64,000 nucleotides of DNA from Nitrospira sp. (GCA_037445435.1 JBBIKN010000005.1:7420-71419); one strand, 5' to 3'; shown: positions 3,265-64,000, numbered from the stretch's first letter. Translations and numbers: made by a program. The notes: generated by a model not told the origin, from the sequence alone.

Positions 3265-3478
3265 AGCTTCACCTCATTCGCTCACGATGGACGGGATGAC
3301 AGCTTGGGTCACACGATACTCGTCCAATTAATTGGCCACTAGTGATTCGCGTTCCATCCTACTTGCCTTATGCAGGTAGGTATCCTAGCACCGTCAACTG
3401 ACTCCAACAAGAGCAGATTGATGAGCTTGGCTGGATTTCGTTATGGAGGGCGACGAGCCATGCATGCACGACAAACTG

Positions 3479-4285: not shown

Positions 4286-4289
4286 TGCG

Positions 4290-5939
4290 TTATCTCCCGA
4301 AGAGGCCTTTCAGAAGTTCTTCTCCCTCTTTCTTTAAGTCCTCTGGCTTCGTGGTGCCTTTGAGTAATCCGCCGACGGCTTCTTCGACCTTCTTCTTCAC
4401 CTGCTCTTGCACTTTTCCGGTGAGGCCCTTGACGTCAACTCCGTACGACGGGGCTTGAGCCGTTCCGGCGATGGTCAGCGGAAGACTCAACCGGCCATCT
4501 TTCATCGCGACTTTGACGACGGGCGACGCAGCCGCAAGCTTCTGGCTCACCTCTTGCGACAGATTGAGATTCACGATCAAGTTCAGCTTTTGGTCGAATC
4601 CGATCGTGCCGCCCCCGGTGGCTTGAAAATCATGGCTATCCATTAATAGACGCTGCACGTTGATGATCCCTTGCTTGATGGCGAGATCCGTCTCGATCGT
4701 TGAAAACGCCGTAGCCTTTGCGTCGCCAAGGGAAATACCGGCCACCCTGAGGGCTGAGGCCACTTCTTGAAGAAGATTCACCCCTTCGATCTTCCCATCC
4801 CTCACCGCCAGATGACCGGTGCCCTCCAATGCCTTCGTCAGGTCCGGTATAGAGAACCCCTTACCTAGCAGCGAAAGATCGGCACCGGCTGTGCCGCTGA
4901 TGGAGACGGGTGTCTCGGCGACAGCATTCAACGCCGGACCAAGCTGCACTCCTTGAACCGTGACACCGCCCTTAAAAGGCGGCGCGTCCGACCCGGCGAT
5001 CATTTTCCCTTGTCCCTTCACCTCGCCATCGAACAGGTGAAACGACATGGAATTGAGTTTCGCCTCTTGTCCCCTGATCTCTGCAGTGATTTTGAGATCC
5101 TTGATATCAACCGGCTTTTTCAAGGGAAGCGCGATCGGAAGGTTCGCGGTATTAATCACCGGCGAGCTGATAGTGACCGTAGCATCGTTCCCAGCGGCAT
5201 TTCCACTAATGGTAAAGTCTGTTTTCCCTACGCCAAGCTGGAAATTGATCGCGTCGATGTCCATCGTCTCTTTCAGGGGGCCGAACGTGCCGTCGAGTTT
5301 CACCGGCAGGTTGAAGGGCTGCACGAGCGAGGCGAAATGGAGCTGCGGCGTTTGACCGAGTCGAACCTCACGAAGGAGCAACTCCAGATCTTGCAGTACG
5401 TATTCGGTAGGAGTGGCGGCAGACAGATCACGGTAGGTCAGCTTCCCGCCGTCGATCGACACTCGATCAACCGCCAACATCGCTAAAATCTTGAGCGGCC
5501 CTTCCGTCGAAGGAATCGGAGCGCGCGATGGCTTCTCCGGCACCGGCACGCCTTTGCGGCCGATCGTCGAGGCATTGAGCACGCCGTTTTTATTCTTGAT
5601 AACCGTAATGACCGGATTGTGAAGTGTGATCTCCTCAACCTCCACCTTGCCACTCAACAGGGGCATGAGTTTCACACCCACATCCAACGACGAGAGCGAC
5701 GCAAACGGACCGGAACTAAAGGCCGGATCATCCAGCACGGCAAACCCCGCCACGCGCGCCCCGATCCTTGGCCAGACGGTGAGACGAATTTCTTGTAACT
5801 GGACCTTCCGATTGAGCGCGTCTTCGATGTGCGGCTTGTACTGCTCCTGATACTTGCTGAGGTCGACCAGGAAGGGTAGCGAGAGGACCACACCGACCAC
5901 CAGAACCACGAGCACAAGCAAGCCGATGGCTATTTTCAT
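4290..5939 (-). CDS. AsmA family outer-membrane biogenesis protein
   Basis: N-terminal anchor MKIAIGLLVLVVLVVGVVLSLPFLV followed by a long beta-rich AsmA-like body. Start placed at ATG 5939, which has GGAGG 8 nt upstream, rather than the longest ORF start at 5993. Confidence 0.75.
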   Translation of the reverse strand: MKIAIGLLVLVVLVVGVVLSLPFLVDLSKYQEQYKPHIEDALNRKVQLQEIRLTVWPRIGARVAGFAVLDDPAFSSGPFASLSSLDVGVKLMPLLSGKVEVEEITLHNPVITVIKNKNGVLNASTIGRKGVPVPEKPSRAPIPSTEGPLKILAMLAVDRVSIDGGKLTYRDLSAATPTEYVLQDLELLLREVRLGQTPQLHFASLVQPFNLPVKLDGTFGPLKETMDIDAINFQLGVGKTDFTISGNAAGNDATVTISSPVINTANLPIALPLKKPVDIKDLKITAEIRGQEAKLNSMSFHLFDGEVKGQGKMIAGSDAPPFKGGVTVQGVQLGPALNAVAETPVSISGTAGADLSLLGKGFSIPDLTKALEGTGHLAVRDGKIEGVNLLQEVASALRVAGISLGDAKATAFSTIETDLAIKQGIINVQRLLMDSHDFQATGGGTIGFDQKLNLIVNLNLSQEVSQKLAAASPVVKVAMKDGRLSLPLTIAGTAQAPSYGVDVKGLTGKVQEQVKKKVEEAVGGLLKGTTKPEDLKKEGEELLKGLFGR

Positions 5940-6027
5940 CTCAATCGCCTCCAGGTGGAACGTAAGTATATAAACCGACTCATGATGAGTCAACGAACAG
6001 GTATGTAGGCGAGACTCGCGATCCGTC

Positions 6028-6393
6028 TAGCAGGATGCTGAAAAAATCTCCCACCGGCGTTCTCGCGGGACACTGCCGCCTCACCATCTCGGCGGCGTTC
6101 ACCAGCTTGTCGCGCTTTATTCAGCGCGGCGGGCACCTCAGAGGCTCAACGTACGAGAATGAGTACGCCTCGCATTAAGACACGGGGCGCTCGGGAGACA
6201 CGGCCCGCTCACCATCTCGCGGGCGTCCACAGACGTGCCATGCTTATTCGGCATGGCGTGGACCTCGCGCCCATCCGCAGACGTGACGCTTATTCGTCGC
6301 GTCGCGGCCCTCGCTGCGGCCTTGGTCGGTGACATGCGCGTCTTGGCGCGCAGGGGTGGGCGGGTGAGAATCGCGGCCTTTTTAAGCATCCTG
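6028..6393 (+). mobile_element. MITE/REP-like non-coding repeat element, expanded copy (same family as 54603-54731)
   Basis: Imperfect terminal inverted repeats CAGGATGCTGAAAAA (6031-6045) and TTTTTAAGCATCCTG (6379-6393), 14/15 complementary. Internal blocks are shared with the second copy (GGCGTTCTCGCGGG, CTCAGAGGCTCAACGTACGAGAATGAGTACGCCTCGC, CCTCGCTGCGGCCTTGG). ORFs across it are Arg/Ala-rich nonsense. Confidence 0.7.
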
Positions 6394-6540
6394 AGTTATT
6401 CCAGCGGTAACACCATACGGAAAATTCCAGCCATATTGTTGGCCTCAACCGAGTTTTTCCGCAGCCTGCCAATGCTTTCCATGTTCGCGGACATTGTCGT
6501 TATTGGCGACCCACTCTCCAACTCCGGAAGCCGGTTATCC

Positions 6541-6783
6541 TTAGCCGAACAACTTGTGGAGCAATTGTTCCCGACTCAGTTCGAAATGCTTCGCAACGTC
6601 CGCGAGGATTGCGGAAAGCGTTCCGATACGGAGAGGATTATGCTGAGGAATGGTCAGATGATGCTCACAGTGTTCTTGAGTCGTGAGTCGCAGATGACTC
6701 CCCGTTTGGCGGGTAATGACATATCCCAGCTTGTGTAGGGCGTGGGCTAGATCGGCTCCCGACAGATCGCGGGGAAGCCTCAT
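6541..6783 (-). CDS. hicA: type II toxin-antitoxin system HicA family toxin
   Basis: 80-aa ORF with a YcfA/HicA-like sequence (LSGADLAHALHKLGYVITRQTGSHLRLTT...PLRIGTLSAILADVAKH). 4-nt overlap with the upstream HicB-like gene. Confidence 0.75.
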   Translation of the reverse strand: MRLPRDLSGADLAHALHKLGYVITRQTGSHLRLTTQEHCEHHLTIPQHNPLRIGTLSAILADVAKHFELSREQLLHKLFG

Positions 6784-6992
6784 ACGGCGATGACTTCCTC
6801 ACGAACATGGTGCAGACGCACGACCTTCGGAGCTTTTCCTTCCTCAAAATGGCAACGGACGGCATCACGGACTTTTTCCGGCAACTCGGCCAGGGAGTCT
6901 GCTTCGGTATAGATCGACACCCCGAGCGCGCGCGCGATAAACCCACCCTCAGGCGCATCTTCTACGACGAAGATCACTTCATGCATCATCAT
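6780..6992 (-). CDS. hicB: HicB-like antitoxin
   Basis: 70-aa ORF (EVIFVVEDAPEGGFIARALGVSIYTEADSLAELPEKVRDAVRCHFEEG), typical of short HicB/UPF0150 partners. Overlaps the hicA start. Confidence 0.7.
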   Translation of the reverse strand: MMMHEVIFVVEDAPEGGFIARALGVSIYTEADSLAELPEKVRDAVRCHFEEGKAPKVVRLHHVREEVIAV

Positions 6993-7452
6993 TTACCAAT
7001 AGCGGTGTGACCATCGTAGTCTTGCTGTGGGCCAATGTCCAGCCCTGTATAGTTTTCAGAGCGTGCTGATGAGCATGCACAAAGCAAGACCCGACCCCAT
7101 TAGGACCTCACTTTGCCATGGCCATAAGAGTTAGCCAGTGAACTGAGCATACTATGAAATGCAACAAACAAGACTTGACCCCATCTCGACACGGGATCAC
7201 TAAGACGAGCATGCCTATCAGAATCTTCATCTAGGTCTTCTCCAGTTGAAAATGAAGTATATAAATGGATCCGAGGTGAGTCAACGAGCAACGGCGCGCA
7301 CACTCGCGAGAACTCTACAACATCTCACTTCGCCGCAATTCGTAGTGAGGGACGGGCGCCTGACACAGTGTCGGGGGAGTCGTCATTTGGGATGCCATTT
7401 GACGACAGAGTCGTCACGCGTGATTATGTATTCGGAGAACCTCGCCTTTTAG

Positions 7453-7661
7453 AAATCAAAGTCCGGCTTCGAAGTGGACTTTATCTTGGGCGATCATACC
7501 GCGATCGAACTCAAGGCGAGTGAAAAAGTCGGCCCCAACCATCTCAGATCGTTGAAGGCGCTGGCGGAGGAACGGAAACCAAACGCTATCTCTGCGTCAG
7601 CTTGGAAACGCGATGGCGAAAGGTCGGGGAGGTCACGATCCGCCCCATACATGAGTTTTGA
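7453..7661 (+). pseudogene. relic of the C-terminus of a DUF4143-type AAA ATPase
   Basis: Begins directly after a TAG with no N-terminal ATPase part. It reads KSKSGFEVDFILGDHTAIELKASEKVGPNHLRSLKALAEE. The expected tail (KRYLCVSLETRWRKVGEVTIRPIHEF*) then continues in a different frame from 7581. Confidence 0.55.
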
Positions 7662-8025
7662 AAGTCATATTCATAGTTCTACACCTCCTAGAACCTCTTA
7701 GCCGACGGATGTGAGGGAATGAATTCGTGGAAGTCCACAAGCGCCAGAGCCAGATGGCAAGCGACGCATGCCATGGCATACACGAAGCAAGACCAGACCA
7801 CTGGACTGTCATGCCTTGCTTTAATACATGAATTATGAATTAACCGATAACTCGACCGTCCTGGTGGTGTAGCTGTCAGCCTGTGGCAGGGTATGAATGC
7901 AAAACCATAATCGGATTTCCGATCTTGGATACCCGTCGATTTCTACCGATCCCCCTGTTCTCCGTCTTTTTCCACTTCATTGCTCTGTGCACGGGGCAGA
8001 GCTTGTGTTAAAATAACAGAGCGTC

Positions 8026-9687
8026 ATGCCAGGCGCAGTGTTTTCACCTCGCCAAACTTATCTTTTACAAAAGCTCTATACCGAGCAACAGCCTTACACC
8101 CTCATAGCAATAGTTCTAGCCGGCATAACTATCTTGACGTCAATCGGAGGCTGTTGGCCAAATAAGGCCTCTTCCATTTCCATTCCCGCATTTTCTCTCC
8201 TACATCAACCAGTTGCCTCCCACAAACTTATCGTGTTTGTCCACGGATTTACTGGGGATCCTTTGTCCACTTGGACAAATCAATCAGGAGTGACCTGGGC
8301 GGATCTTATCAAAGAGGACGAACGACTTCGCGAATTTACAGTCTGGATGCACCATTATGACACTCCCCTCCTGGATCGTTCTTTGACGGTCGAGGAAACC
8401 GCCACACGATTTCTTCGGCAGCTTAAGGACGAAGGAGCGTTCGATAGGTTTGAAGAAATATACCTTATCGCTCACAGTATGGGCGGGCTGGTTGTAAAAC
8501 GAGTATTAGCAGATCTCAACAGCGCAACTCAGATCGAGAGACTTCGCAAGATTAAGGCTGTGTTACTCATCTCTACACCAACTCAGGGGTCGAGCGTGGC
8601 TCAATTAGCAGCTCTGCTTAGTCTCAATCCTCAAGCACGAGACATGAAACCTGCCAATCTAAACTCGTATCTTCAGTCCATTGAGAATCAGTGGCAGAGT
8701 CTTATGCGCGATCGAGGGAATCGACCTTTTCCAAAATCCTATTGCGCGTACGAGACAAAGCCGACTGGAGGTATTGTTATTGTTGATCGAGTCTCGGCGG
8801 CCACCTTTTGTGACGACAGTATGTTTCCTGTGCCTGCTGACCACCGAGATGTCGTGAAACCACAGGACGCCCAAAGTGACATTTATCGGTGGGTACAAGC
8901 GCGACTTATAGAAACAAGTGGGCTTGTACGATCCACCATACAGACGGCTATATCCGTTCAAGTGGCGCCACGCGTACTGCATTACGTGTATCGTTACAAA
9001 AGCAGTGGCGAAACAATACGGCAAAACGAATATGGATTCGGCCTCGTCGTGCGTGTCCGAAATACAGGGGAGAAAATCGAACGGGTTAAGGCATTAGAAA
9101 TTGTGGGCGAAATTGATGCAGATCCCGACGATTTAGAAGCCTTCAACGCAGAAGGAAAAACCTTTGAGGAGCTTGACGAGGAATACGGTCGGACTCAACC
9201 ATACTATCGAATCTCTTTCGTATCTTTTCCTATAAGCGGGAACAAGATTGAACCCGGGAGTGAAGAATTTTTTCGTTTTATGGTTTTAGATCCAACTTAC
9301 CTTTCTACGCAAGCGATTCACCGGGGGGAAGAGGCGTGGAAATACATCGGGTTTCGAGCTAAAACCCCTCGGCCACCTTTGCTTTTGACCACTGTTCCGA
9401 ATATCCGTTCCTTTATAACCTTCACTAAATCTCGACACGCTGTTCCTGGAAACTCAGAACTTCTAGGACCAAGACTTAGAAGCGAGATGAAGTCCGGAGT
9501 AATGCAGATTACCTTAAGGTTTGAGTCAGGCTCGCAAGCCATAAATCCCGTGGACCTACAGGATCCTGCTTTAATTTCATGGGACAATTGGAACAAACTC
9601 TCACCACAGGACATTTATTTCAGGAACAGCCCCTGGGACAGAGTCGTACCGATAACTAAAGATCCTCTAGTGGAGTCTAGCCCATAG
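8026..9687 (+). CDS. membrane-anchored alpha/beta-hydrolase (lipase/esterase, PGAP1/DUF676-like) with a ~300-aa C-terminal domain of unknown function
   Basis: 553-aa ORF with an N-terminal TM (YTLIAIVLAGITILTSIGG). LIVFVHGFTGDP oxyanion-type block and GxSxG nucleophile elbow (IAHSMGG). Lies in a visibly A+T-rich stretch. Confidence 0.7.
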   Translation: MPGAVFSPRQTYLLQKLYTEQQPYTLIAIVLAGITILTSIGGCWPNKASSISIPAFSLLHQPVASHKLIVFVHGFTGDPLSTWTNQSGVTWADLIKEDERLREFTVWMHHYDTPLLDRSLTVEETATRFLRQLKDEGAFDRFEEIYLIAHSMGGLVVKRVLADLNSATQIERLRKIKAVLLISTPTQGSSVAQLAALLSLNPQARDMKPANLNSYLQSIENQWQSLMRDRGNRPFPKSYCAYETKPTGGIVIVDRVSAATFCDDSMFPVPADHRDVVKPQDAQSDIYRWVQARLIETSGLVRSTIQTAISVQVAPRVLHYVYRYKSSGETIRQNEYGFGLVVRVRNTGEKIERVKALEIVGEIDADPDDLEAFNAEGKTFEELDEEYGRTQPYYRISFVSFPISGNKIEPGSEEFFRFMVLDPTYLSTQAIHRGEEAWKYIGFRAKTPRPPLLLTTVPNIRSFITFTKSRHAVPGNSELLGPRLRSEMKSGVMQITLRFESGSQAINPVDLQDPALISWDNWNKLSPQDIYFRNSPWDRVVPITKDPLVESSP

Positions 9688-56738: not shown

Positions 56739-57104
56739 CGGCTGTGGCTCACGCGAAGCGCGGGAAGAATCGGATTGCGAGGTTTTTCGAGTCATGGCAT
56801 GAAAGGGTATCAGGAGAGAGGCTCTCCTGTCGAGCCGTTAGGAACCGAGCGATTGGAAGAAGCCTGTGAGACCGGCACTCGACTAGCCTTCTTTGAAAAG
56901 CATCTGTAGAGGTGTTGCAGATTGACTGTACCCACTCTGGCGTAGCAGAATGTAGCTTTTGGGTTTCAATGAGACGCCGTATAGGGGTCTGCACGGTTCA
57001 CGATCCTTCCCTATCACTCGCCCCTGCTTCCTCTCCCAGATCATTAGCAATCAAGCGGAACTGTTCGAGCGCAGATTCGAGGTCGTCGACGATTTCCTGC
57101 GCGA

Positions 57105-58505
57105 TCACGTCGGGTCGGGGAGGTTGTCGGAGGCTTCGAGGGATTCGTCTTTGAGCCAGAAGATGTCGAGGCTGGCTTTGTCGCGGGCGATGAGTTCGTC
57201 GTAGGCGTAGGCACGCCAGCGGCCGTCCGGTTTCTTCTCGGACCAGGTCGCTTTCCGCTCGTGACGGTTCGCCGGGTTGTAGCATTGCACGAATTCGTCC
57301 AAATCCTCGCGTTTGAGCGGGTTGGTCTTGAGCGTGAAGTGCTGGTTGGTGCGCAGGTCATAGATCCAGAGTTTCCTGGTCCAGGGCGTTTCGCTCGCCG
57401 GTTTCTTATCGAAGAAGAGAACGTTGGCCTTGACGCCTTGGGCATAAAACAGGCCGGTCGGCAATCGCAGCAGCGTATGTACGTCGCAGTCGTGGAGCAG
57501 CTTGCGGCGAACAGTCTCGCCTGCACCGCCTTCAAAGAGCACGTTGTCCGGCACCACGACAGCGGCGCGGCCATTCACCGCCAGGATCGTCTTTACATGC
57601 TGGACGAAGTTCAGTTGCTTGTTGGAAGTTGTCGCCCAGAAGTCGTCACGCTCGTAGGTTTCTCGTTCCTTGGAGACTTCACCCTCCTGTCCGACGACCG
57701 TGTAGCTGCTCTTCTTGCCGAACGGCGGATTGGTGAGGACGATGGTGAACCGTTCGCCTGGATCGGAGGCGAGGGAATCGGCCGCCTCGATTGGCTCGAA
57801 GTCCTGAGAGCCGATGCCGTGCAAGAGCAGATTCATCGCGCAGAGACGGACGACGCTCTGGACAAGCTCGTAGCCTTTTAACGTCTCTTCTTTAAGCTTC
57901 TTCTTTTCAGCCTTCGTCAGATTCGGATTGTGCTTCACCACATAATCGTGCGCAGCGAAGAGAAATCCGCCGGTCCCGCAGGCAGGATCGCAGATCGTGT
58001 CACCGGGCTTCGGTGCAACGGCATCGACCATCGCTTGGATCAACGGACGCGGCGTGAAGTACTGGCCGGCCCCACCCTTCACGTCTTCGGCGTTCTTTTG
58101 GAGCAGTCCCTCGTAGGCATCGCCTTTCACGTCGGCGCTCATCGTGGACCAGTCTTCCTTGTCGATGAGGTCCACGATCAGGCGGCGGAGCTTGGCGGGA
58201 TCTTGGAACTTGTTCTGAGACTTGTTGAAGATCAGCCCGAGCAAGCCCTTTTCGTTCCCCAGTTTCTCTAAGCTGTGGCGATAGTGGTCGAACAGCTCAT
58301 CGCCGTCCTTCTTGAGCAAGCTCTGCCAACTGTACTTTTCAGGAACCGGGCTGACCTGGTTGTACGGCGGCTTCGTCCGTTCATCCGCCATCTTAAGGAA
58401 CAGCAAATACGTCAACTGCTCGACGTAGTCGCCGTAGCTCATCCCGTCATCGCGAAGGACGTTGCAATAGTTCCAGAGTTTTTGGACGATGGCGGAGGGG
58501 CTCAT
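57105..58505 (-). CDS. hsdM: type I restriction-modification methyltransferase subunit HsdM (C-terminal ~37 codons displaced by a frameshift)
   Basis: N6-adenine MTase motifs DPACGTGGFL and NPPFGKK, with the HsdM N-terminal domain. The normal tail (PDVIAQEIVDDLESALEQFRLIANDL) is encoded in another frame at 56998-57110. Confidence 0.88.
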   Translation of the reverse strand: MSPSAIVQKLWNYCNVLRDDGMSYGDYVEQLTYLLFLKMADERTKPPYNQVSPVPEKYSWQSLLKKDGDELFDHYRHSLEKLGNEKGLLGLIFNKSQNKFQDPAKLRRLIVDLIDKEDWSTMSADVKGDAYEGLLQKNAEDVKGGAGQYFTPRPLIQAMVDAVAPKPGDTICDPACGTGGFLFAAHDYVVKHNPNLTKAEKKKLKEETLKGYELVQSVVRLCAMNLLLHGIGSQDFEPIEAADSLASDPGERFTIVLTNPPFGKKSSYTVVGQEGEVSKERETYERDDFWATTSNKQLNFVQHVKTILAVNGRAAVVVPDNVLFEGGAGETVRRKLLHDCDVHTLLRLPTGLFYAQGVKANVLFFDKKPASETPWTRKLWIYDLRTNQHFTLKTNPLKREDLDEFVQCYNPANRHERKATWSEKKPDGRWRAYAYDELIARDKASLDIFWLKDESLEASDNLPDPT

Positions 58506-58870
58506 TGAGGGCGATCGCCTGTTTCCGAAAGTTGCTGACCTGCCGAAGTCTGCGGGAACAGTTGTAGGACTCTGCTTCTGAGTTCTTCACGGAAGAGAAT
58601 TTCAATACACACAATTGTCCTGTCTACGAGGTCGAGAATCATTTCCCCGGAGGAAGGACAGAGAGAGAGGCTTTCATGATTCGGCCCGTATGCTCCCTTT
58701 GGTTTTGGAGCGGTGTAGAGCGTGGCGCAGAAGTCATCACCACAGCGCCACCGGTCAACGAGTCGAAGCTGCGGTACTTGCTCGGCCAAATCCCTATCAC
58801 CTTGATTTCTGAGAAGCACGGTTAATTCGTCCGCAAGGTCAGGCAGAGCGTCCTGCAGAAGTGATGACAT
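58502..58870 (-). CDS. hypothetical protein (partner of DUF4926 gene)
   Basis: 122-aa ORF whose stop overlaps the hsdM start (ATGA). No motif recognised. Confidence 0.5.
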   Translation of the reverse strand: MSSLLQDALPDLADELTVLLRNQGDRDLAEQVPQLRLVDRWRCGDDFCATLYTAPKPKGAYGPNHESLSLCPSSGEMILDLVDRTIVCIEILFREELRSRVLQLFPQTSAGQQLSETGDRPQ

Positions 58871-58885
58871 TGTGGGTGAAGGGGG

Positions 58886-59116
58886 TTATTGCGAAAGAAG
58901 CTCGCGGGCATGAGTAATTTCGCGTTTGCCGACAGGGCGAACCTGGGCAGCTTCCACCGTGATGACCGCAGCAGTCTTACCTTCCAGGGTGGTAAACTCC
59001 ACCTCATAGGCCTGACCTTCACAATAAATAAGCACGATCGTCCCAACATCTCCCGCTACAAGCCCTTCAGCGGGAACATCAGCAGCTAATACGACTTGAT
59101 CGAGTTCCTTCATCAT
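58886..59116 (-). CDS. DUF4926 domain protein
   Basis: 76 aa (LDQVVLAADVPAEGLVAGDVGTIVLIYCEGQAYEVEFTTLEGKTAAVITV), which I recall as the DUF4926 pattern. Confidence 0.6.
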   Translation of the reverse strand: MMKELDQVVLAADVPAEGLVAGDVGTIVLIYCEGQAYEVEFTTLEGKTAAVITVEAAQVRPVGKREITHARELLSQ

Positions 59117-59143
59117 GGTCCGGTACTTGGCTTGCGTCAGAGA

Positions 59144-59341
59144 TCAGGCGCGCAACACTTCCGGCCTGGTTGAAAGATAGGCCAGGATCTCTTGTTGCCG
59201 GTCCTGAATTTGAAGCAGGTATGGTGCGGCAAGGCGTTCGTAGTCCGTACGTGCGTGCGTCTGCCTCGCCTGCTCAAGAAACTGCCAGAGCTTCTGCACA
59301 GCTGTTTCAGCCTGATGGAGTTCGTCGTCGTTGGCAATCAC
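59144..59341 (-). CDS. small helical protein, putative cognate partner of the nucleotidyltransferase
   Basis: 65-aa ORF. 4-nt overlap with the upstream NTase gene. Confidence 0.5.
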   Translation of the reverse strand: MIANDDELHQAETAVQKLWQFLEQARQTHARTDYERLAAPYLLQIQDRQQEILAYLSTRPEVLRA

Positions 59342-59733
59342 GGAAGCACCTCGACAATGGGTTGAGGACGAAACTGCCGGTCACGCGAGAACACCGCCAA
59401 TGCATCTGCGATAGGCTCAGCGCCGATCGACTCGGTGACCCAAAAGACATCGACATTATAGCGGATTCGACAGGAATCATGCACAAATACGGCGAGGAGT
59501 TCATCGGGGAGCCCGGTGGTGTGAAAATCAGCGGACATCACAACAAACAGATCGACATCATTAGGCAGTGCAGCCTCAGTGGGAAAGCTGCCGAAGAGGT
59601 AAATGTGCCTGACCTGACCCGTCTCGTGAAGCCGCATTACCACCGCGCGGAGGCGCTCATACAGAAACTGTCGCCTCGGCGTACTGGTCCCAAACCGTTC
59701 TCTGACTGCGGCTAGGGTGAGGACTTCGATCAT
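59338..59733 (-). CDS. nucleotidyltransferase-domain protein (MNT-like, toxin-antitoxin type)
   Basis: GS-x10-DxD pattern: IYLFGSFPTEAALPNDVDLFVV. Confidence 0.65.
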   Translation of the reverse strand: MIEVLTLAAVRERFGTSTPRRQFLYERLRAVVMRLHETGQVRHIYLFGSFPTEAALPNDVDLFVVMSADFHTTGLPDELLAVFVHDSCRIRYNVDVFWVTESIGAEPIADALAVFSRDRQFRPQPIVEVLP

Positions 59734-59756
59734 GACTCGTCGTTCATATGGTTATT

Positions 59757-59852
59757 CCCGTCATCGCGCCTGCCTGCGCCAAGCAACGCGCGGCAGGCAG
59801 GGAGGACGTTGCAGTAGTTCCAGAGCTTTGGGACGATGGCTGAGGAACTCAT
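59757..59852 (-). repeat. relic copy 1 of the hsdM 5' end (codons 1-21) carrying a 33-bp palindrome
   Basis: ATGAGTTCCTCAGCCATCGTCCCAAAGCTCTGGAACTACTGCAACGTCCTC [33 bp] CGCGATGACGGG aligns to hsdM 58505-58446. The insert at 59769-59801 is CCTGCCTGC-N15-GCAGGCAGG. Confidence 0.85.
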
Positions 59853-59943
59853 CTGGAATAGAATGGTGCCCAAACAGCGTGAGCGCCGGTGGGAGACGAA
59901 GTCGGAAGCGTCACGGACAGGTCAGATTCCTCCGCATTGTCCA

Positions 59944-60156
59944 TCATGTGCCGGTCATGAGCTCGGCTTCCAGAGGGCGATCCTTCTTGAAACGGCTCAC
60001 GCCAAGTACACTGAAGCCCAGCACATGTCCCTGCTCATCAACCCGCTCCATGACCGCATCATGGGCTGTGGGTCGCATGAAACCAGGCGCCTCACGAAAC
60101 TGCACCTCAAGGTAGTCCGCGTCCGGATCGAACCAGACTTTTACTTTTTCGGCCAT
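59944..60156 (-). CDS. DUF2283 domain protein (antitoxin-like)
   Basis: 70 aa (KVWFDPDADYLEVQFREAPGFMRPTAHDAVMERVDEQGHVLGFSVLGVS), a typical DUF2283 sequence. Confidence 0.7.
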   Translation of the reverse strand: MAEKVKVWFDPDADYLEVQFREAPGFMRPTAHDAVMERVDEQGHVLGFSVLGVSRFKKDRPLEAELMTGT

Positions 60157-60452
60157 ATCGTCTCTCCCGCCTTACGTTGATCGGTCAAATAGGCCGTCAC
60201 CATAAAAGCATCCTCAGGGGCATACTTTACCACGACACACAGCCACTTCCCACCAACCATCGTCCTGGCATAGAACTCGTAGAACAATCGCACAGTCTCA
60301 TCCGAGCGCGAAACCCGCACTTCGGTTGGCGATTGAAGCACCCGCTCAATCTCCTGGGCCAGGCCGGCCATTTCCGCATGTTGAAGGCAATAGGCGATCC
60401 GTTCATCTGTCAGTCGGACAGATCGGCCAAAACAATCACGGACAACCTTCAT
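60141..60452 (-). CDS. putative toxin partner of DUF2283 (small conserved hypothetical)
   Basis: 103-aa ORF overlapping the DUF2283 gene by 16 nt (VRLTDERIAYCLQHAEM...KWLCVVVKYAPEDAFMVTAYLTDQRKAGETIW). Family name not certain. Confidence 0.55.
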   Translation of the reverse strand: MKVVRDCFGRSVRLTDERIAYCLQHAEMAGLAQEIERVLQSPTEVRVSRSDETVRLFYEFYARTMVGGKWLCVVVKYAPEDAFMVTAYLTDQRKAGETIWPKK

Positions 60453-60546
60453 CGATCATCCCCAAAGATACGAATAGTCAGAGTCATCGGTGATTCACGA
60501 AGTCGCCCCGGCTCAGCCCGCATGCCTGTGTGTCGCACGCAGACAG

Positions 60547-60639
60547 GTCATCGCGCCTGCCTGCCGCGCGTGGCTTGGCGCAGGCAGGAAGGACGTTGCA
60601 GTAGTTCCAGAGTTTTTGAACGATGGCTGAGGTTGTCAA
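60547..60639 (-). repeat. relic copy 2 of the hsdM 5' end carrying the 33-bp palindrome with inverted spacer
   Basis: TTGACAACCTCAGCCATCGTTCAAAAACTCTGGAACTACTGCAACGTCCTT [33 bp] CGCGATGAC aligns to the hsdM start. The insert is at 60556-60588. Its 15-nt spacer is the reverse complement (14/15) of the copy-1 spacer. Confidence 0.85.
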
Positions 60640-60676: not shown

Positions 60677-61483
60677 CTAATGCGCGTGAATCTCCAATAA
60701 CTCACAGAGAACGACTCTGACGAGGTCCCGGACCCGAAGGACCTCAGCTTTGTCTGTGGGTGTGTGCGTCGAAACGCTCGATCTTGTGTAAACCGAGCGG
60801 ACAAAAGATCCCACGGCTTCTTCGACAGCATCTATCGCCTCTTCCGTCGTTCCTGAAACCGCTTTTGACACCCCCCTGCTTTTTAATATGTACCGGACTT
60901 TTTGTTTCATCGTTGGTCCGTCTGTGTCTGCATCTTGCTTGTAGCCGGGCATTGCCTTTACATCTTTATCGGGCGCTAGATAATCAAGCGTCTCACGCAA
61001 TGCCTCGCGCAAATCCGTTGCTGGTCCTCGCCAGGAACACCTCTTGTCAGATTGAATATCAATGGTGGCCTGCTCATAAGACCGAGCTGCTGACGGAACT
61101 ACGGATTGCAAGGTCTCTAATATTTGAGCATCAACTACATCCAGACGTTTCTTGGTAGCAGCTTTCGCAGCAGTGGCTATAGCTTGGCTATCTAGCGAAA
61201 TGAGAGAAGTTTTTGCGCTCGCAAGAATCTCCTGATAACGCGTAGCCATGCTTCTCTTGTGACAAAGCACCAGTAATTCCTGCATAAGGTCGTCAACCTG
61301 TTTTATTGCCTCGTCCTGTTCTTGTTTGCTGGCTAGGGAAGGCCTTATTTCAACAAAGTAATTCTCAACTAATCGCCTGAGCTCATCCCTATGCTTCTGT
61401 GAATGCACCTGACCGGTGACCTTATTAAGGTCCTTTCTAGCTTTTTCGACATGCCGAATGTAGGACTTAATAACCTCCGACAT
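60677..61483 (-). CDS. hypothetical alpha-helical protein (candidate effector of a two-gene module)
   Basis: 268-aa ORF, 4 nt downstream of the preceding gene. No family recognised. C-terminal string VYTRSSVSTHTP fits a loose R-x5-H pattern. Confidence 0.6.
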   Translation of the reverse strand: MSEVIKSYIRHVEKARKDLNKVTGQVHSQKHRDELRRLVENYFVEIRPSLASKQEQDEAIKQVDDLMQELLVLCHKRSMATRYQEILASAKTSLISLDSQAIATAAKAATKKRLDVVDAQILETLQSVVPSAARSYEQATIDIQSDKRCSWRGPATDLREALRETLDYLAPDKDVKAMPGYKQDADTDGPTMKQKVRYILKSRGVSKAVSGTTEEAIDAVEEAVGSFVRSVYTRSSVSTHTPTDKAEVLRVRDLVRVVLCELLEIHAH

Positions 61484-61487
61484 TCAC

Positions 61488-62024
61488 TCAAGACCCTTTC
61501 TTGGCGGGCAACCCGTGCACGACAAGGTTATAGCCAACTGCGTTTAGCTTGTATTCGCCTCTTGCCTTCGATTCAAAATAACCCGATCGCTTGGCATCTT
61601 TGAGTATTTGATCGACCTTCTTCGGAAGTTTGAAACTGGCCTGCTTGAAGTACTTCTCAATATCGCCGGTAGAGATCGATTGTTTCCGCTCGTCCTTTGG
61701 AGCCTTTTCCTGAAGGTAGTATGCAACTAGACATGCCATCTGCTTGGCTGAATCAGGATTCTTCTCTTCCTTGAGCGAACGAATATCTATCTGACGCCCA
61801 GCATGTTTGGTCGTTGCCTCAGCAGCCGCTGCTCCACCTGATTGCTTCTCCTGCTCGCCGCTGTCAGCTCCACTGCCATTCTCTTGGTCCCTTAAGGCAA
61901 GGTGAATCTTTAGATGTTTGCATGCCGCTGAGACAGCCGTGATCCGTGCGTTCTCATCCAGTCCATCGAGTGCATTGATTATGTGGTCAATTGCCTGCCC
62001 GAGTGACATTTTAGTCTCAGCCAT
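61488..62024 (-). CDS. hypothetical protein with low-complexity linker and C-terminal winged-helix-like region
   Basis: 178 aa from ATG 62024, with GGAGG upstream. The C-terminus (STGDIEKYFKQASFKLPKKVDQILKDAKRSGYFESKARGEYKLNAVGYNLV) looks wHTH-like. This is an inference. Confidence 0.55.
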   Translation of the reverse strand: MAETKMSLGQAIDHIINALDGLDENARITAVSAACKHLKIHLALRDQENGSGADSGEQEKQSGGAAAAEATTKHAGRQIDIRSLKEEKNPDSAKQMACLVAYYLQEKAPKDERKQSISTGDIEKYFKQASFKLPKKVDQILKDAKRSGYFESKARGEYKLNAVGYNLVVHGLPAKKGS

Positions 62025-62075
62025 ACGACCTCCATCTTCATGAAGAAGCAATAACGCTATTGCGTCTCCCTAAAT

Positions 62076-63461
62076 TTATGGCTCTCCAACCGTAAGCGTC
62101 CCAGAAAACGCAGTTGTCAGGACGGACTGCCGTAAACGTTCCGCGCGGGTGAGGTTGGCTTCGACGACGGCTTCGAGTTCGTCGATGACGGACAGGCGGC
62201 GCTCGACTTCGGCGACGATTTGTTCTTGCTCTTCACGTGGGGGGATGGGGATAGGTAATCGTCGAAAGTCCTCGACGTTTACTCCCTGCAAAGCAACGCC
62301 CCGAGTTTCACCGGTTAGCCAGCGCTGGCAGTAGTCCGATCGAATCGCCCATACGACAAAGTTCCGCACCATCATGGAGTGAACCGGAGCCCTCATCACA
62401 TGCTGAGTTATGTTGCCTCCCTCTAGCTCAGGTGGCACAACCGCGACGCGTCCAATAGTTCCATCCTTCGAGATCAGGATATCTCCTGAAGCCAGTGTGG
62501 CCCTCGCAAATTTGGCTGCACGTTCTGGCGATGTCCGCCTAAGATTCTTAATATCTATTCGCCCGTCCTTCATCTCCGTGACCCTCACATAAGGGACACC
62601 ATTCGAGATGTGTGGACCTGGCTTGATGATTCCATAGATGATGGGCCTTCCATGTTGACCGATCCATTCGAGACTCGCCCATGTCCATCCGCTCGGAAGG
62701 GGTGGCAAATCAGTTAGATCAGGTGGTAATGTTTCTTTGCGCTTTCCTTTTCCATCCGACTTCACCTGCCGTTCAGCGAGGATGCGTTCGAGGAGTTTGC
62801 TGGCTGGTTCGACGTCCGGATGCGCCTTGCGCCAGTTTTCGGTCAGCTTCCCTTCGACGGCGGCTTTGAGGACGGCGGCTTGGTAGCGTTTGAGGTTGGC
62901 TTTCGTGCGTTTAAGCGAGGCGACAGCTTCATCGAGGCGGGAGAATTGCTTTTCGATCTCCGCGACGATGCTGATTTGTTCCTCAGGGCATGGGACCGGA
63001 ATTAATACCTCCTCCAAGAAAGACTGCGGCACGCGCTTCTGCCCCACCGCACCAGTCATCTGATGCGCTGCATCACGTCGAAAACTCTGGTTTGACACGA
63101 AGTAGTACACATATCGAGGATCAACTCCCTCATTGGGGCGAAGAACGTGAAACTCTGTTGATCCAAACCCGATGTCATTTGTCAGCTTGGGCACGACCGC
63201 CATTTTCCCGTTTTCCATACACGGGGTAATCTTGGCAAATAGCACATCGCCTTCCTTAAATGGCGTGTAGCCCTTCTTGACAGCACTGAAGGGCTTTGTC
63301 TGAGAAACATCCATTCGTCCGCTGCCAGCTTCGACCGCAGCCATAGGGACGAAAGAAACTTCGAGATCATCCCGATAAGCGGACTTAACAAGGCGCGGAT
63401 TCAATTCCACTACCTCGGACAATGGTTTCTTGGGCCAAGTAGTTACAGTCTTGTCCGACAT
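62076..63461 (-). CDS. hsdS: type I restriction-modification specificity subunit HsdS
   Basis: 461 aa with two target-recognition domains separated by conserved helical repeats (EIEKQFSRLDEAVASLKRTKANLKRYQAAVLKAA and AEVERRLSVIDELEAVVEANLTRAERLRQSVLTTAF). Confidence 0.88.
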   Translation of the reverse strand: MSDKTVTTWPKKPLSEVVELNPRLVKSAYRDDLEVSFVPMAAVEAGSGRMDVSQTKPFSAVKKGYTPFKEGDVLFAKITPCMENGKMAVVPKLTNDIGFGSTEFHVLRPNEGVDPRYVYYFVSNQSFRRDAAHQMTGAVGQKRVPQSFLEEVLIPVPCPEEQISIVAEIEKQFSRLDEAVASLKRTKANLKRYQAAVLKAAVEGKLTENWRKAHPDVEPASKLLERILAERQVKSDGKGKRKETLPPDLTDLPPLPSGWTWASLEWIGQHGRPIIYGIIKPGPHISNGVPYVRVTEMKDGRIDIKNLRRTSPERAAKFARATLASGDILISKDGTIGRVAVVPPELEGGNITQHVMRAPVHSMMVRNFVVWAIRSDYCQRWLTGETRGVALQGVNVEDFRRLPIPIPPREEQEQIVAEVERRLSVIDELEAVVEANLTRAERLRQSVLTTAFSGTLTVGEP

Positions 63462-63463
63462 CG

Positions 63464-63642
63464 CTACGCCGCTAACGCCCCGTTCAGTTCTTCAATAATC
63501 TTGTTCAACTCGCCACCAAAGACCTGATGCACTTTCCCAACCCACCATCCAGATTAAACGGCGCCAGCTCGAAGTCGTCCTTCTCGACGCTGACATTCGC
63601 CGCGATGTGATCGCATCTCAATTCAGAAGAGAGGCCGCACAC
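63464..63642 (-). pseudogene. short relic resembling the C-terminal end of a type I HsdR (EcoEI_R_C-like)
   Basis: Reads ELRCDHIAANVSVEKDDFELAPFNLDGGLGK, then after a 1-nt shift in a G-run, VHQVFGGELNKIIEELNGALAA*. It ends 2 nt before the hsdS ATG and has no upstream helicase part. Family assignment is from memory. Confidence 0.4.
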
Positions 63643-63948
63643 TTATCCTAATCGCGATTGCCAGTAGCCAGGCCGCCGCTTCAGATGCATCACAGCAATG
63701 ACGAAAAGCCCCACTGATTGTTGAATATAAATGATTGCAAAAGGAAACCGATGCACGAGAAAACGCCTTGTTCCTTGCCGGTAATCCGGCCAGGTTTTCG
63801 GAGCCTCTCGTATTCGGGAAATAGCGGTCCTGATTTCCTGGAAGAACGACTCTCCCAGGCCGGGTCGTTGTCCCTCGTACCAGGCCTTGGCTCGCTCTAG
63901 CTCGGCGAGCGCATCGGGATGAAACTCGACGGACTGTTCACTTGCCAT
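63643..63948 (-). CDS. parE: type II toxin-antitoxin system RelE/ParE family toxin
   Basis: 101 aa (FHPDALAELERAKAWYEGQRPGLGESFFQEIRTAISRIREAPKTWP...FPFAIIYI...VIAVMHLKRRPGYW). Confidence 0.8.
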   Translation of the reverse strand: MASEQSVEFHPDALAELERAKAWYEGQRPGLGESFFQEIRTAISRIREAPKTWPDYRQGTRRFLVHRFPFAIIYIQQSVGLFVIAVMHLKRRPGYWQSRLG

Positions 63949-64000
63949 GTCGCAGCCGTCTCTGCACTTCCTCCCAAGGAATCGTGTTCACTTCTCCCCG
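63938..64000 (-). CDS. antitoxin partner of ParE, C-terminal fragment (continues beyond window end)
   Basis: Open frame ...GEVNTIPWEEVQRRLRHGK* whose stop overlaps the parE start region. Confidence 0.45.
   Translation of the reverse strand, partial: RGEVNTIPWEEVQRRLRHGK

Follow-up and report, generated by a model that had tools for sequence, protein, structure and literature searches.

Results

Gene content of the locus

The window, that is, the whole stretch of 64 kb of Nitrospira DNA that was analysed, carries on its minus strand a type I restriction-modification operon in the order hsdR-hsdS-hsdM, with small toxin-antitoxin (TA)-like or abortive-infection-like blocks upstream of hsdM (Table 1). 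The HsdM of the window shares 97% identity with HsdM proteins of Nitrospira sp. that are 493-516 aa long. Alignment with a related locus (L141) reveals a 1-nt deletion near 57105-57115 which puts the final ~34 codons out of frame.

Several block genes recur at related loci. The 122-aa gene is the usual upstream partner of leaders (hsdM 5' ends) of the MSPSAIVQKL type and is followed by an hsdM leader or a relic in L127, L130, L137 and L138; in L135 it sits at the contig end. The 65-aa gene and the nucleotidyltransferase, a candidate TA-like or defence-like protein, are kept as a pair in L128, L135, L138 and L141. The DUF2283 gene lies beside hsdM leaders also in L123, L142 and L143, and in L142 the 103-aa gene comes after a different relic. 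Between hsdS and relic 2 the block consists of the 268-aa and the 187-aa gene, the former being kept in L132. The hsdM 5' relics have a mirror image in the relic of the hsdR 3' end; homologous hsdR relics precede hsdS also in L126, L129, L135 and L137, with a complete hsdR further upstream, and the ParE-like cassette between hsdR and its 3' relic has a matching layout in L126.

Table 1. Features of the hsd locus, with positions counted from the first nucleotide of the window
Feature	Position	Strand	Remarks
hsdM (type I methylase), working-type, final gene of the array	57105..58505	-	Pfam HsdM_N and N6_Mtase
122-aa gene, no assigned function	58502..58870	-	stop overlaps hsdM ATG (ATGA)
DUF4926 gene, cassette A	58886..59116	-	Pfam E=3e-20
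65-aa partner gene of the nucleotidyltransferase, cassette A	59144..59341	-	adjoins and overlaps the nucleotidyltransferase gene
DUF6932 minimal nucleotidyltransferase, cassette A	59338..59733	-	Pfam DUF6932 1e-18; PADLOC candidate PDC-M63A 1e-12
Relic 1, old hsdM 5' end, codons 1-21, 40-codon ORF	59730..59852	-	stop overlaps nucleotidyltransferase ATG
33-bp mini-hairpin element in relic 1	59769..59801	.	gene-strand spacer CGCGCGTTGCTTGGC; dG -27 kcal/mol with flanks
DUF2283 gene, cassette B, antitoxin-like	59944..60156	-	Pfam
103-aa gene, cassette B, weak RelE/barnase-like match	60141..60452	-	Pfam PBECR2 E=0.04 only
Relic 2, older hsdM 5' end, codons 1-28, TTG start, 51-codon ORF, two in-frame inserts	60484..60639	-
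Second mini-hairpin element, 27 nt, CCTGTCTGCGTGC... type, after codon 20 of relic 2	60520..60546	-
33-bp mini-hairpin element in relic 2, spacer flipped versus relic 1	60556..60588	.
268-aa gene, pPIWI/Argonaute-associated-nuclease-like domain	60677..61483	-	Pfam pP_pnuc_1 5e-13; PADLOC Aga_Nuclease
187-aa gene, no assigned function, partner of the 268-aa gene	61488..62051	-
hsdS, specificity subunit	62076..63461	-	Pfam Methylase_S; PADLOC Specificity_I 4e-140
hsdR 3'-end relic, frameshifted, EcoEI_R_C type, immediately before hsdS	63466..63585	-	translation
ParE-like toxin gene of the TA cassette between hsdR and the hsdR 3' relic	63643..63948	-	Pfam ParE_toxin

Copies of the hsdM 5' end

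The first 51-63 nt of hsdM are present three times, intact at 58505 and as relics at 59852 and 60639. A 38-nt leader pattern gives three matches at up to two mismatches, with none expected by chance, and the coordinates of the triplication in the original prediction hold. The two relics had also been taken for nearest relatives of each other, but they agree with one another at 55/63 positions and each with the intact copy at 56/63, which is star-like. Relic 2 is longer than had been noted, as beyond its 27-nt insert the hsdM homology runs on to codon 28 (GLSRGDFV).

Across the loci, the relic 3' ends are imprecise (D20, G21, M22, Y24 three times, Y27, V28, E42 twice, P47), and the relic lengths fall in a narrow band of 20-47 codons, with one of ~72. 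Many relics have nonsynonymous changes of their own (Q>P, K>M, L>R, L>P, Y>C, N>S), a frameshift (L128a), a lost start (L129) or an early stop (L141). Between two orthologous relics there are seven synonymous differences versus one nonsynonymous difference, an excess which could mean that the peptide matters.

Among 10 more or less independent relic ORFs, about 8 have remained open, and their stop codons overlap the start of the following gene as ATGA or GTGA. These overlaps occur where relics meet nucleotidyltransferase, hsdM, Fic and DUF6883 genes, and the junction sequences differ. In the window the 40-codon ORF of relic 1 ends in such an ATGA, as had been predicted. Because the ORFs are open and stop and start overlap, they are probably kept as translational-coupling leaders passing ribosomes to the first gene of the block. 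The coupling-leader idea of the original prediction is thereby supported.

Mini-hairpins in the relics

The palindrome CCTGCCTGC-N15-GCAGGCAGG occurs exactly twice in the 64 kb against 0.03 expected, once in each relic and nowhere else in the window. As the original prediction had it, the palindrome interrupts both relics between codons 17 and 18 and is missing from the intact 5' end. Each insert measures exactly 33 bp and shows no duplication of its target. Also confirmed is that the two spacers are reverse-complementary at 14/15 positions (97% over all 33 nt). The flipped spacer of relic 2 is found in L132, L124, the second relic of L141 and P0005 as well and recurs in ~6 relic lineages; either the hairpin mediated an inversion on the spot, or the element inserted a second time the other way round. 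The flipped copy in L132 is a 100% reverse complement of the relic-1 copy. Between relic 2 and L132 the hairpin differs at 1/33 nt and the flanks at ~20%, a hint that the hairpin is constrained or was converted recently. The same codon boundary bears the hairpin, in both orientations, in at least 16 metagenome contigs whose leaders have diverged, and in 9 of 16 metagenome relic contigs its right arm is decayed.

The relics are colonised by the 33-bp palindrome and a 27-30-nt element, and in related loci also by a 24-nt element. The 27-nt element sits at the identical site in L121, L127 and L128b and is read in many relic ORFs as LSAC..AQAG. The length of every insert is divisible by three. In 120 full-length HsdM homologues, codons 6-48 are free of inserts, and every insert-bearing match is a short ORF. 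Some relics lack a hairpin (L133, relic0 of L123, the third relic of L141, which is cut at codon 47, and L142), and there is none in the hsdR 3' relic of the window. L124 and L133 are orthologous relics with and without the hairpin, which suggests that the hairpin arrived after the relic had formed.

A genome scan places the 33-bp palindrome family at no fewer than 120 loci in many phyla with unrelated flanks. Phage contigs also carry it, and 11 of 16 viral matches are family-like. By their family-like asymmetric spacer, 84 nonredundant copies with sufficient flank could be oriented, and a conserved 2-nt bulge gives the hairpin polarity. The element lies inside unrelated coding genes (HsdR, methylases, glycosidases, surface proteins, phage genes) and there not at cassette borders. 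In-frame insertion is confirmed by the HsdR alignment, with three elements in hsdR of L084 and one in hsdR of L138; the intragenic copies strongly prefer one reading frame (LPA...QAG). The element bears neither a GTAG nor a CGTC tag, and a RAYT-like gene lies near 2 of 120 listed loci. The palindrome is a dispersed REP-like mini-hairpin element and, in our reading, not the crossover site.

Variation among related loci

We compared at least eight related Nitrospira-type loci with the layout hsdR-hsdS-array-hsdM. Loci with 91-97% identical HsdM hold completely different blocks between hsdS and hsdM, among them DarTG, Fic, DUF6932, DUF4926, DUF2283, DUF6883 and DUF5131. The blocks are punctuated by hsdM 5' relics, cassettes differ in presence, absence and order, and homology between loci breaks at relic edges. 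The homology of the window to L135, L128 and L131 begins exactly at 59852, that to L132 ends after the palindrome plus RDD and that to L123 ends at 59760. In L138 a join lies at the microhomology GCGACGAC. Different blocks and breaks at relic edges show that cassettes are indeed added and shuffled at the hsdM 5' end, and repeatedly so.

The relics are former working 5' ends, as follows from three comparisons. L143 has an intact hsdM after DUF2283 at the orthologous position of relic 1, and its first 17 codons align with relic 1. In L137 the junction of the 122-aa gene and the leader, intact in the window, is a relic. In L141 an hsdM start of the MTTS type is a relic cut at codon 47; this start is intact in L123, L125, L132 and L148. 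L132 has the orthologue of relic 2 after the same 268-aa gene and an intact hsdM 11 nt further on. In N. bockiana, hsdM 5' relics are absent. The units of L123, L125, L126, L129, L132, L136 and L148 are variable to the left of the hairpin and conserved to the right. Within ~10 kb no integrase or recombinase was found in five of six longer related loci (L137, L138, L141-L143, L146); the sequence of L141 extends only ~4 kb upstream.

Discussion

The proposal of repeated cassette insertion or recombination at the hsdM 5' end is borne out by the comparison of homologous loci. We think it rather probable that insertions with long target duplication struck the hsdM 5' end again and again, that the leader copies then recombined homologously to shape the arrays, and that the hairpins are colonisers of the relics. 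We suggest the following steps. Each block addition would cut the resident hsdM within the first ~20-47 codons and supply a new hsdM 5' end. The old 5' end would remain as a relic, so that earlier hsdM starts pile up in the array. To capture a block for the first time, illegitimate joining of the microhomology type would be needed on its upstream side. The leader copies of 50-130 bp could then act as portable homology arms, and homologous recombination between them, within or between genomes, would move, delete and reshuffle blocks. The relic ORFs would pass ribosomes to the first block gene. Finally, mini-hairpins would invade relics and not full-length hsdM, be it by selection or timing. The recombination pathway is what we infer from these comparisons, as is the means by which the hairpin moves. 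Against such accretion it can be held that neither recombination intermediates nor population polymorphism were seen, that the narrow band of relic lengths is accounted for only by selection or later trimming, and that a hairpin at one codon boundary requires a strong target preference or spread by recombination.

The original prediction saw in the hairpin a possible recombination site, attC-like in concept. A dedicated attC-like or loxP-like site, with the recombinase encoded elsewhere and the spacer inverted by flip-flop at the 9-bp arms, would agree with the single codon boundary in at least 16 contigs despite diverged leaders, with the recurrence of both spacer orientations and the perfect reverse complement in L132, and with the polarity given by the bulge. 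The pattern of several loci, locus-specific left of the hairpin and a conserved unit to its right, would equally be expected from a crossover at the hairpin. However, the genome scan finds the palindrome dispersed at no fewer than 120 unrelated sites away from cassette borders, an outcome that the original prediction had itself named as speaking against it, and relics without hairpin precede the same cassettes (L133 versus L124; L142 versus relic 2 of the window). Relic ends scatter, and cassette junctions lie at many positions from 9 to >100 nt downstream of the hairpin. A GTTRRRY-type core is absent, right arms are often decayed, and a linked integrase or resolvase is missing within ~10 kb in five of the six longer loci. 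A dedicated site is in our view quite improbable. That the hairpins are instead the cause, their insertion inactivating hsdM or making a fragile site by hairpin cleavage and fork stalling, and repair with a foreign or paralogous hsdM dragging in upstream genes and leaving a relic, we consider unlikely. Most relics do bear at least one hairpin in codons 12-28 and most end 0-45 nt downstream of it, no hairpin is present in the 120 full-length homologues, and live restriction-modification genes are hit elsewhere (hsdR of L084 and L138). Yet L133 and the third relic of L141 are free of hairpins, the comparison of L124 with L133 suggests its later arrival, and the mirror-image hsdR 3' relic has none.

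It is very doubtful that the duplication is maintained as a selected regulatory leader, in which a uORF mimicking the HsdM N-terminus and a stable hairpin tune translation or mRNA stability of hsdM and the inserted genes. A compact unit of relic, hairpin, 11 nt with GGAG and hsdM is seen in seven contigs, one of them without nearby hsdS or hsdR, and the relic stop overlaps the hsdM ATG; the synonymous excess, the conservation of the hairpin relative to its flanks (relic 2 versus L132) and the insert lengths in multiples of three would also fit. The nonsynonymous changes and lesions in other relics and the decayed right arms argue against it, as do close relatives, among them N. bockiana, L143 and L142, which run hsdM without such a leader directly upstream; moreover, the synonymous pattern can stem from recombination with working alleles. 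Finally, short repeats such as the 50-nt leader can mislead assemblers into chimeric metagenome joins, so that the array would not be contiguous, and the window proteins are absent from the public gene index. But many independent assemblies, made in different projects and with different assemblers, show the same architecture and relic-cassette junctions (L128, L131, L135; L137; L138; L141-L145), and with differences at 7-8/63 nt and in their inserts the relics could not collapse as repeats. An assembly artefact is extremely improbable.

The mini-hairpin resembles the REP elements and REPINs with their RAYT transposases, intragenic REPs included (Di Nocera et al. 2013, PMC3733652). Like these it is a GC-rich imperfect hairpin of 20-40 bp that is scattered in either orientation, may be nested, paired or intragenic, and leaves no target duplication. 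Unlike REPs it lacks the tag, has only two copies in the window and RAYT-like genes near few loci, prefers one reading frame within genes, and its arms span many phyla and phage contigs and not one species-specific family. The palindromic elements of Rickettsia, reportedly ~100-150 bp long and confined to that genus, are likewise selfish palindromic DNA read through in coding genes as an extra peptide in one preferred frame, but the present elements measure 24-33 bp and cross phyla. Minute inversions at hairpins are said to occur in chloroplast noncoding DNA. A short, perfect hairpin there has its loop now in one and now in the other orientation at a single site, and no recombinase is required. 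For the present spacers such an inversion would be one possibility, and a new insertion the other way round is just as likely.

As in integrons, small promoterless blocks form a co-directional array with a hairpin-forming repeat each, and TA cargo is common. Here, however, there are no IntI and no R and L boxes, junctions are imprecise, and what is repeated is part of the downstream gene together with an unrelated 33-bp hairpin, which also occurs far from cassettes. Tandem accretion at gene ends is known from tRNA 3' ends and from the phages e14 and 21 in icd, where a site-specific integrase acts at a fixed crossover site, mostly at 3' ends. Incoming DNA likewise restores the end of the target gene, the displaced end becomes a relic and repetition gives arrays bounded by relics, but here no integrase is seen and crossover points vary. 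Insertion with long target duplication has reportedly been observed at restriction-modification loci. Such inserts are flanked by direct repeats of >30 bp and variable length, which are single-copy in genomes without the insert; the inserts have no transposase or integrase and are seen at restriction-modification loci, mostly in recombination-prone bacteria (Furuta, Abe & Kobayashi 2010, PMC2853133). The flanking direct repeats, single-copy where the insert is absent, the inserts without transposase or integrase and the kind of locus are shared. The differences are that the cargo here consists of small TA-like or defence-like blocks and not of a restriction-modification system, that the target is always the hsdM 5' end, with the hsdR 3' end as mirror case, that the event is repeated at one target to give multi-relic arrays, and that the relics persist as open, coupled ORFs. 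Accessory defence genes embedded in type I operons, such as PrrC in PrrI, are known (Anantharaman et al. 2013, PMC3710099). Toxin or abortive-infection genes are similarly nested between hsd genes here, probably as a second defence line, although that literature reports the embedding and not relic gene ends for each insertion or hypervariable multi-block arrays.

In our reading of repeated insertion with target duplication, the leftover hsdM starts mark repeated additions of small defence-like blocks in front of the methylase gene.

Leader copies and the state of the operon

The 5′ end of hsdM had been predicted to be triplicated, and this is the case. Codons 1–17 of the gene are present again at the start of two relics, that is, leftover hsdM 5′ ends (see the table of features). 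A 38-nt leader pattern with up to 2 mismatches matches three times in the window and in none of 100 shuffles. As originally described, a 33-bp palindrome, CCTGCCTGC-N15-GCAGGCAGG, is inserted exactly between codon 17 (Leu) and codon 18 (Arg) of both relics; a target duplication is absent. The pattern occurs twice in the 64 kb with 0.03 occurrences expected, and we found no element in the window outside the two relics. The predicted flip of the spacers is also seen, the two 33-bp copies being 97% complementary. A closer kinship between the relics, which had likewise been proposed, was not found: without the inserts the pairwise identities are 55/63, 56/63 and 56/63, thus the three copies are equidistant. 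Relic 2 carries a second in-frame hairpin insert of 27 nt after codon 20, and its homology to hsdM extends to codon 28. The CCTGCCTGC arm is also found once within intact hsdM, where it codes for PAC of the SAM-binding motif DPACGTGGF; this is probably a coincidence since the partner arm is absent.

Features of the hsdM region in window coordinates, in array order
Feature	Position	Strand	Remarks
ParE-like toxin gene	63948-63643	minus	first in array order
hsdR C-terminus fragment, EcoEI_R_C type	63585-63466	minus	frameshifted; directly upstream of hsdS
hsdS	63461-62076	minus	single copy in window
187-aa gene and 268-aa gene (Argonaute-associated-nuclease-like)	62051-60677	minus	between hsdS and relic 2
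Relic 2	60639-60484	minus	TTG start
33-bp hairpin of relic 2	60556-60588		
103-aa gene, DUF2283 (cassette B)		minus	between relic 2 and relic 1
Relic 1	59852-59730	minus	40-codon ORF; its TGA overlaps the ATG of the DUF6932 nucleotidyltransferase gene
33-bp hairpin of relic 1	59769-59801		
DUF6932 nucleotidyltransferase (NTase), 65-aa gene, DUF4926 (cassette A), then 122-aa gene		minus	between relic 1 and hsdM
hsdM	58505-57105	minus	466 aa; Pfam HsdM_N and N6_Mtase
CCTGCCTGC arm in hsdM	57978-57986	minus	
CCCCGACCCCGAC run with 1-nt deletion	57100-57120	minus	
ORF with the displaced HsdM C-terminus	56998-57285		
Housekeeping genes			beyond hsdM, order along the minus strand; citramalate-synthase-like gene first

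Among type I components, hsdM and hsdS are recognised in the window, and hsdR only as the frameshifted 3′ fragment. By likeness to related loci (L126, L135, L137 and L142) a full hsdR is expected beyond position 64000; in the first three of these it lies upstream of the toxin-antitoxin (TA) pair that precedes the hsdR 3′ relic. This relic before hsdS, with the TA pair between it and the full gene, is the mirror image of the hsdM 5′ duplication. The hsdR-containing frame of L126 (412-3567) has a GIY-YIG nuclease match at residues 902-969 between two EcoEI_R_C stretches, which suggests that the 3′ region of hsdR has undergone an insertion or a fusion.

The HsdM protein of the window shares 97% identity with proteins from Nitrospira sp. 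MAGs, and all those homologues have 493-516 aa. Relative to hsdM of the related locus L141, the window gene has lost 1 nt in the CCCCGACCCCGAC run and stops at 466 aa, with the conserved C-terminal ~34 residues (DVIAQEIVDDLE...) in another frame. The deletion is either a genuine inactivating frameshift or a sequencing error. The pair of the 187-aa gene and the 268-aa gene (pPIWI/Argonaute-associated nuclease domain) is kept in synteny in the related locus L132, and no Argonaute gene is near the pair. An NCBIfam search of the cassette genes gave no names. A promoter and terminator scan of 58.3-60.8 kb returned background level only and nothing stands out within the array; the hairpins themselves are ruled out as intrinsic terminators as they have no T-tract.

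Variation of the arrays

Operons of this family read hsdR (EcoEI_R_C type), TA genes, hsdR 3′ relic, hsdS, array, hsdM. The original prediction of repeated cassette insertion or recombination agrees well with the comparison, as loci whose HsdM is 91-97% identical to that of the window have quite different arrays.

Gene order in arrays of related loci
Locus	Array
L141	DUF5131, 358 aa, relic, NTase, 65 aa, relic (flipped hairpin), relic (MTTS type, without hairpin, cut at codon 47), Fic, 54 aa, hsdM
L142	hsdS, DUF4747, 152 aa, relic, 103 aa, DUF2283, 67 aa, DUF4926, hsdM
L143	DUF5131, 358 aa, DUF2283, DUF4926, relic, DUF6883, DUF4926, DUF2283, hsdM
L137	hsdS, DarT, Macro ... DUF4926, 121 aa, relic, DUF6883, DUF4926, 70 aa, UPF0149, relic, Fic, hsdM
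Ca. N. bockiana	hsdS, 477 aa, hsdM (hsdM 5′ relic absent)

The borders of DNA homology lie at the edges of relics. Three loci (L135, L128, L131) align to the window with 85% over 1299 nt; the alignment begins precisely at 59852 and takes in cassette A. Homology to L132 runs from hsdS to the end of the relic 2 hairpin and the following RDD codons, after which L132 has 11 nt with a Shine-Dalgarno-like GGA and then intact hsdM. Homology to L123 comprises DUF2283 and relic 1 and likewise ends after RDD. L143 has an intact hsdM at the position of relic 1 and L137 a relic at the position of the intact start; this exchange argues that the relics are earlier working 5′ ends. The 3′ ends of the relics are spread (D20, G21, M22, Y24 three times, Y27, V28, E42 twice, P47 and about codon 72). 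In L138 the join is at the microhomology GCGACGAC, between KKDGDD and RDD. The relic of this locus (8009-8740) reaches to about codon 72, is full of nested mini-hairpins and contains in addition a ~190-nt insert; it shows how relics fuse and decay.

It had been proposed that a relic could act as a coupling leader. The reading frames support this: most relic ORFs run uninterrupted across their inserts, and their stop codons overlap the start of the next gene as ATGA or GTGA, as would suit translational coupling. Such overlaps are found at relic-NTase junctions (two different), relic-hsdM, relic-Fic (four variants) and relic-DUF6883. By manual count about 8 of 10 relic ORFs are open and overlapping versus about one third expected.

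Two further loci deserve mention. In L148 (7828-8000) a compact unit of relic, hairpin, 11 nt and hsdM adjoins a DDE transposase gene, with no hsdS or hsdR within 8 kb upstream of the unit. The gene caller placed the start of this hsdM at Met22, so such units are open to mis-annotation. A "truncated methyltransferase" of Candidatus Jettenia (P0039), considered as a relic array, is an ordinary split pseudogene near IS elements.

The hairpin in leaders and elsewhere

A metagenome scan with a wobble-degenerate version of codons 11-17 followed by the left arm gave 16 contigs, whose leaders are diverged hsdM N-termini (MSNHSQQIVQKF, MSPSAIVQKL, MRTSQIIQKL and others). The spacer is mostly oriented as in relic 1 and is flipped in L124 and L132; the L132 hairpin is the 100% reverse complement of the relic 1 copy. 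The two orientations could come from inversion in place or from re-insertion. In 9 of the 16 contigs the right arm is decayed. A protein search with leader plus inserts gave short ORFs of 48-119 aa throughout the best 120 matches; many of these are relics, others are genes cut by contig ends.

The insertion point is identical in many leaders. At L17|R18 the insert reads PACRALLGAGR, or PACAKPRAAGR when flipped. Other inserts are found at D20|G21 (LSAC..AQAG, 24-30 nt), Y27|V28 (PSARLRAG, 24 nt) and N12|Y13, and nested copies occur as well. No inserts are present in codons 6-48 of 120 full-length HsdM homologues. The mini-insert at codon 27/28, CCTTCGGCGAGGCTCAGGACAGGC, was seen in relics of four loci (L123:1866-2030, L130, L137:10001-10240, L142:8684-8851), and strings like CTTCGACAAGCTCAGG lie near hairpins in the unrelated loci L085 and L119. 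Some relics are without the 33-bp element (L133, the relic termed relic0 in L123, L142 and the third relic of L141). L133 and L124 have orthologous relics before the same Fic-type gene, with the hairpin absent in the former and present in the latter. Between relic 2 and L132 the hairpin differs at 1 of 33 positions, the flanks at about 20%.

Outside the leaders the palindrome is dispersed, as a family that shares identical 9-bp arms. A scan for the bare palindrome, one genome per species, gave at least 120 loci, where chance would give about 10-20 exact matches by a rough manual estimate. They come from Verrucomicrobiota, Latescibacterota, Methylomirabilota, Desulfobacterota, Chloroflexota, Bacteroidota, Planctomycetota, low-GC Patescibacteria, Nitrospira and others, and their flanks have no relation to hsdM. 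Several Latescibacterota chromosomes have at least 4-8 matches each, and the same 33-mer is found letter for letter in different phyla. The hairpin had originally been taken for a possible dedicated recombination site of hsdM. Its dispersal among unrelated flanks, named beforehand as the observation that would speak against such a role, makes such a role unlikely.

From 84 non-redundant copies a common asymmetric spacer, CGNGN-N4/5-NCNG-GC, emerges, which lengthens the stem across a 2-nt bulge. The predicted fold has a 9-bp stem, the bulge and an inner stem of 2-5 bp, with dG from -19 to -27 kcal/mol. At the flanks of the oriented copies G/A is favoured at -1 and C/T at +1. Long ORFs contain many of the copies, and one frame, reading LPA....(A/R)QAG, accounts for 22 of about 30. 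The host genes code for HsdR, N6/N4 methylases, a DUF1156 methylase, glycosidases and surface proteins. When three HsdR proteins are aligned, the 11-aa segments prove to be true insertions, present in one homologue and missing in another; the HsdR of L084 has two further inserts which are missing from its 70%-identical relative in L065. In IMG/VR viral contigs 11 of 16 matches are family-like, and five of these are at one position, where the sequence, read by eye, is in the frame LPA...QAG. No significant copy of the 33-mer was found in the PLSDB collection, which represents plasmids of cultured bacteria. At a permissive threshold, Rfam gave two chance-level matches in window 57-64 kb, neither at the hairpins. 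A literature search with the hairpin sequence returned unrelated primers and oligonucleotides only, and no description of the family was found.

In L088 a long open frame (3473-7615, minus strand) contains a RAYT-like Y1 transposase segment (HUH ...HVHALV..., Pfam Y1_Tnp), DUF1156 and D12 methylase domains and a hairpin. A weaker Y1 relative is encoded in L059 (2624-2815), about 2 kb from hairpins. It is possible that these proteins are the mobilising enzymes of the hairpin. RAYTs are single-copy genes within a genome. With three Y1 transposase queries, tblastn found among the 120 palindrome-scan loci (within 8 kb) only L088 and L059, besides self-matches in L139 and L140. Two of 120 loci are too few to claim a linkage between hairpin and RAYT.

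Comparison with known systems

Integron arrays are recognised by a gene for the tyrosine recombinase IntI and an attI site beside the array, and attC sites are imperfect palindromes of ~57-141 bp with R''/L''...L'/R' boxes and a GTTRRRY core. The attC-like character that was originally considered finds no support. The element in the window has 33 bp with the arms CCTGCCTGC/GCAGGCAGG and is without GTTRRRY; the relic-cassette junctions are spread over codons 20-47 whereas integron cassettes end exactly at their recombination site; and the hairpin is also found inside unrelated genes of many phyla, whereas an integron site is confined to cassette borders. Phase-variable hsdS shufflons such as the pneumococcal ivr/tvr loci have inverted repeats in duplicated hsdS target-recognition domains and a linked invertase. 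In contrast, the window has a single hsdS, direct repeats in hsdM and no recombinase. In the window from 52 to 64 kb no Pfam match to an integrase, resolvase or transposase was detected, nor was a recombinase gene within ~10 kb of the arrays of L137, L138, L142, L143 and L146, or in the ~4 kb covered upstream of the array in L141.

The arrangement shares features with insertion with long target duplication, which is known for R-M-linked genes without mobility genes (PMC2853133). In such events (Furuta et al. 2010) the insert lies between direct repeats >30 bp that are single-copy where the insert is absent. Here, cassette A is flanked by relic 1 and the intact leader (63 nt, 56/63 identical) and in L143 the same DUF2283 is followed by just one leader, which is intact; L132 and the window show the same relation for relic 2. 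Absence of a mobility gene and variable duplications, here of ~60 to ~215 nt, are also shared, and the inserts hold only small TA-like or defence-like genes. In the screen of Furuta et al. (2010), however, the insert had to contain R and M genes, whereas here TA-like and abortive-infection-like genes are inserted and the R-M gene is the target.

The hairpin itself resembles the REP palindromes associated with RAYTs in being a GC-rich, imperfect, stable hairpin within their 20-40 bp range. REPs have many dispersed copies per genome; the 64-kb window has two, both in relics, and several Latescibacterota chromosomes have at least 4-8 each. In REPs an unpaired GTAG or CGTC is conserved as a tag at one end (PMC3733652), and no tetranucleotide tag is seen among the 84 oriented copies. 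The most plausible view of the hairpins is that of selfish, REP-like passengers: relics would tolerate them and working hsdM would be purged of them, which is consistent with their decay in many relics.

Proposed pathway and meaning

We suggest the following recombination pathway at the hsdM leader. The pattern fits insertion with long target duplication, here repeated at one target. A first capture would require illegitimate joining on the upstream side and, downstream, homologous joining within hsdM. With leaders on both sides of a block, a donor fragment of relic, block, leader and hsdM could integrate into any related hsdM through two crossovers of the ordinary kind. Blocks could also be deleted or reshuffled when leader copies recombine with one another. 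Such a scheme would explain why homology begins at the start codon, why the same block is found behind different relics, and why the relic type is tied to the upstream gene in one comparison and to the downstream block in another.

The structure is a variation on known kinds, namely insertion with long target duplication, type I operons that harbour accessory genes (PMC3710099) and REP-like palindromes within genes (PMC3733652). A literature search for hsdM cassette arrays found nothing specific. The wider reading, that hsdM leader and hsdR 3′ end form a recombinase-free capture platform and that the hairpin represents a new class of ultra-small mobile elements, appears to us rather unlikely as a whole. 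If true, both the platform in Nitrospira-type type I R-M operons and the mini-palindrome family are possibly undescribed. Relic gene ends would be portable homology arms by which TA-like and abortive-infection blocks hop between R-M loci through ordinary recombination, leaving past acquisitions stacked in order, with selection on the relic ORFs to maintain translational coupling. The 24-33-bp in-frame mini-palindromes (LPA...QAG) would form a cross-phylum, phage-borne family which repeatedly strikes preferred sites in R-M genes and might have an anti-restriction effect.

For annotation it matters that metagenomes commonly contain short "HsdM N-terminal domain" ORFs, many of which are probably relics; the rest are genes cut by contig ends. 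The occurrence of the hairpin family in many phyla and phages raises the questions of what moves 33 bp so far and whether it prefers R-M targets, and both this family and the array architecture merit further study. For the R-M operons, the arrays would offer a concrete route for the growth of a defence island inside an operon without transposases or integrases: the duplicated gene ends would keep the flanking R-M genes intact, couple translation and then serve as homology arms for more exchange. The stack of relics would be a readable acquisition history, and rates of cassette gain and the donors could be tested in Nitrospira populations.
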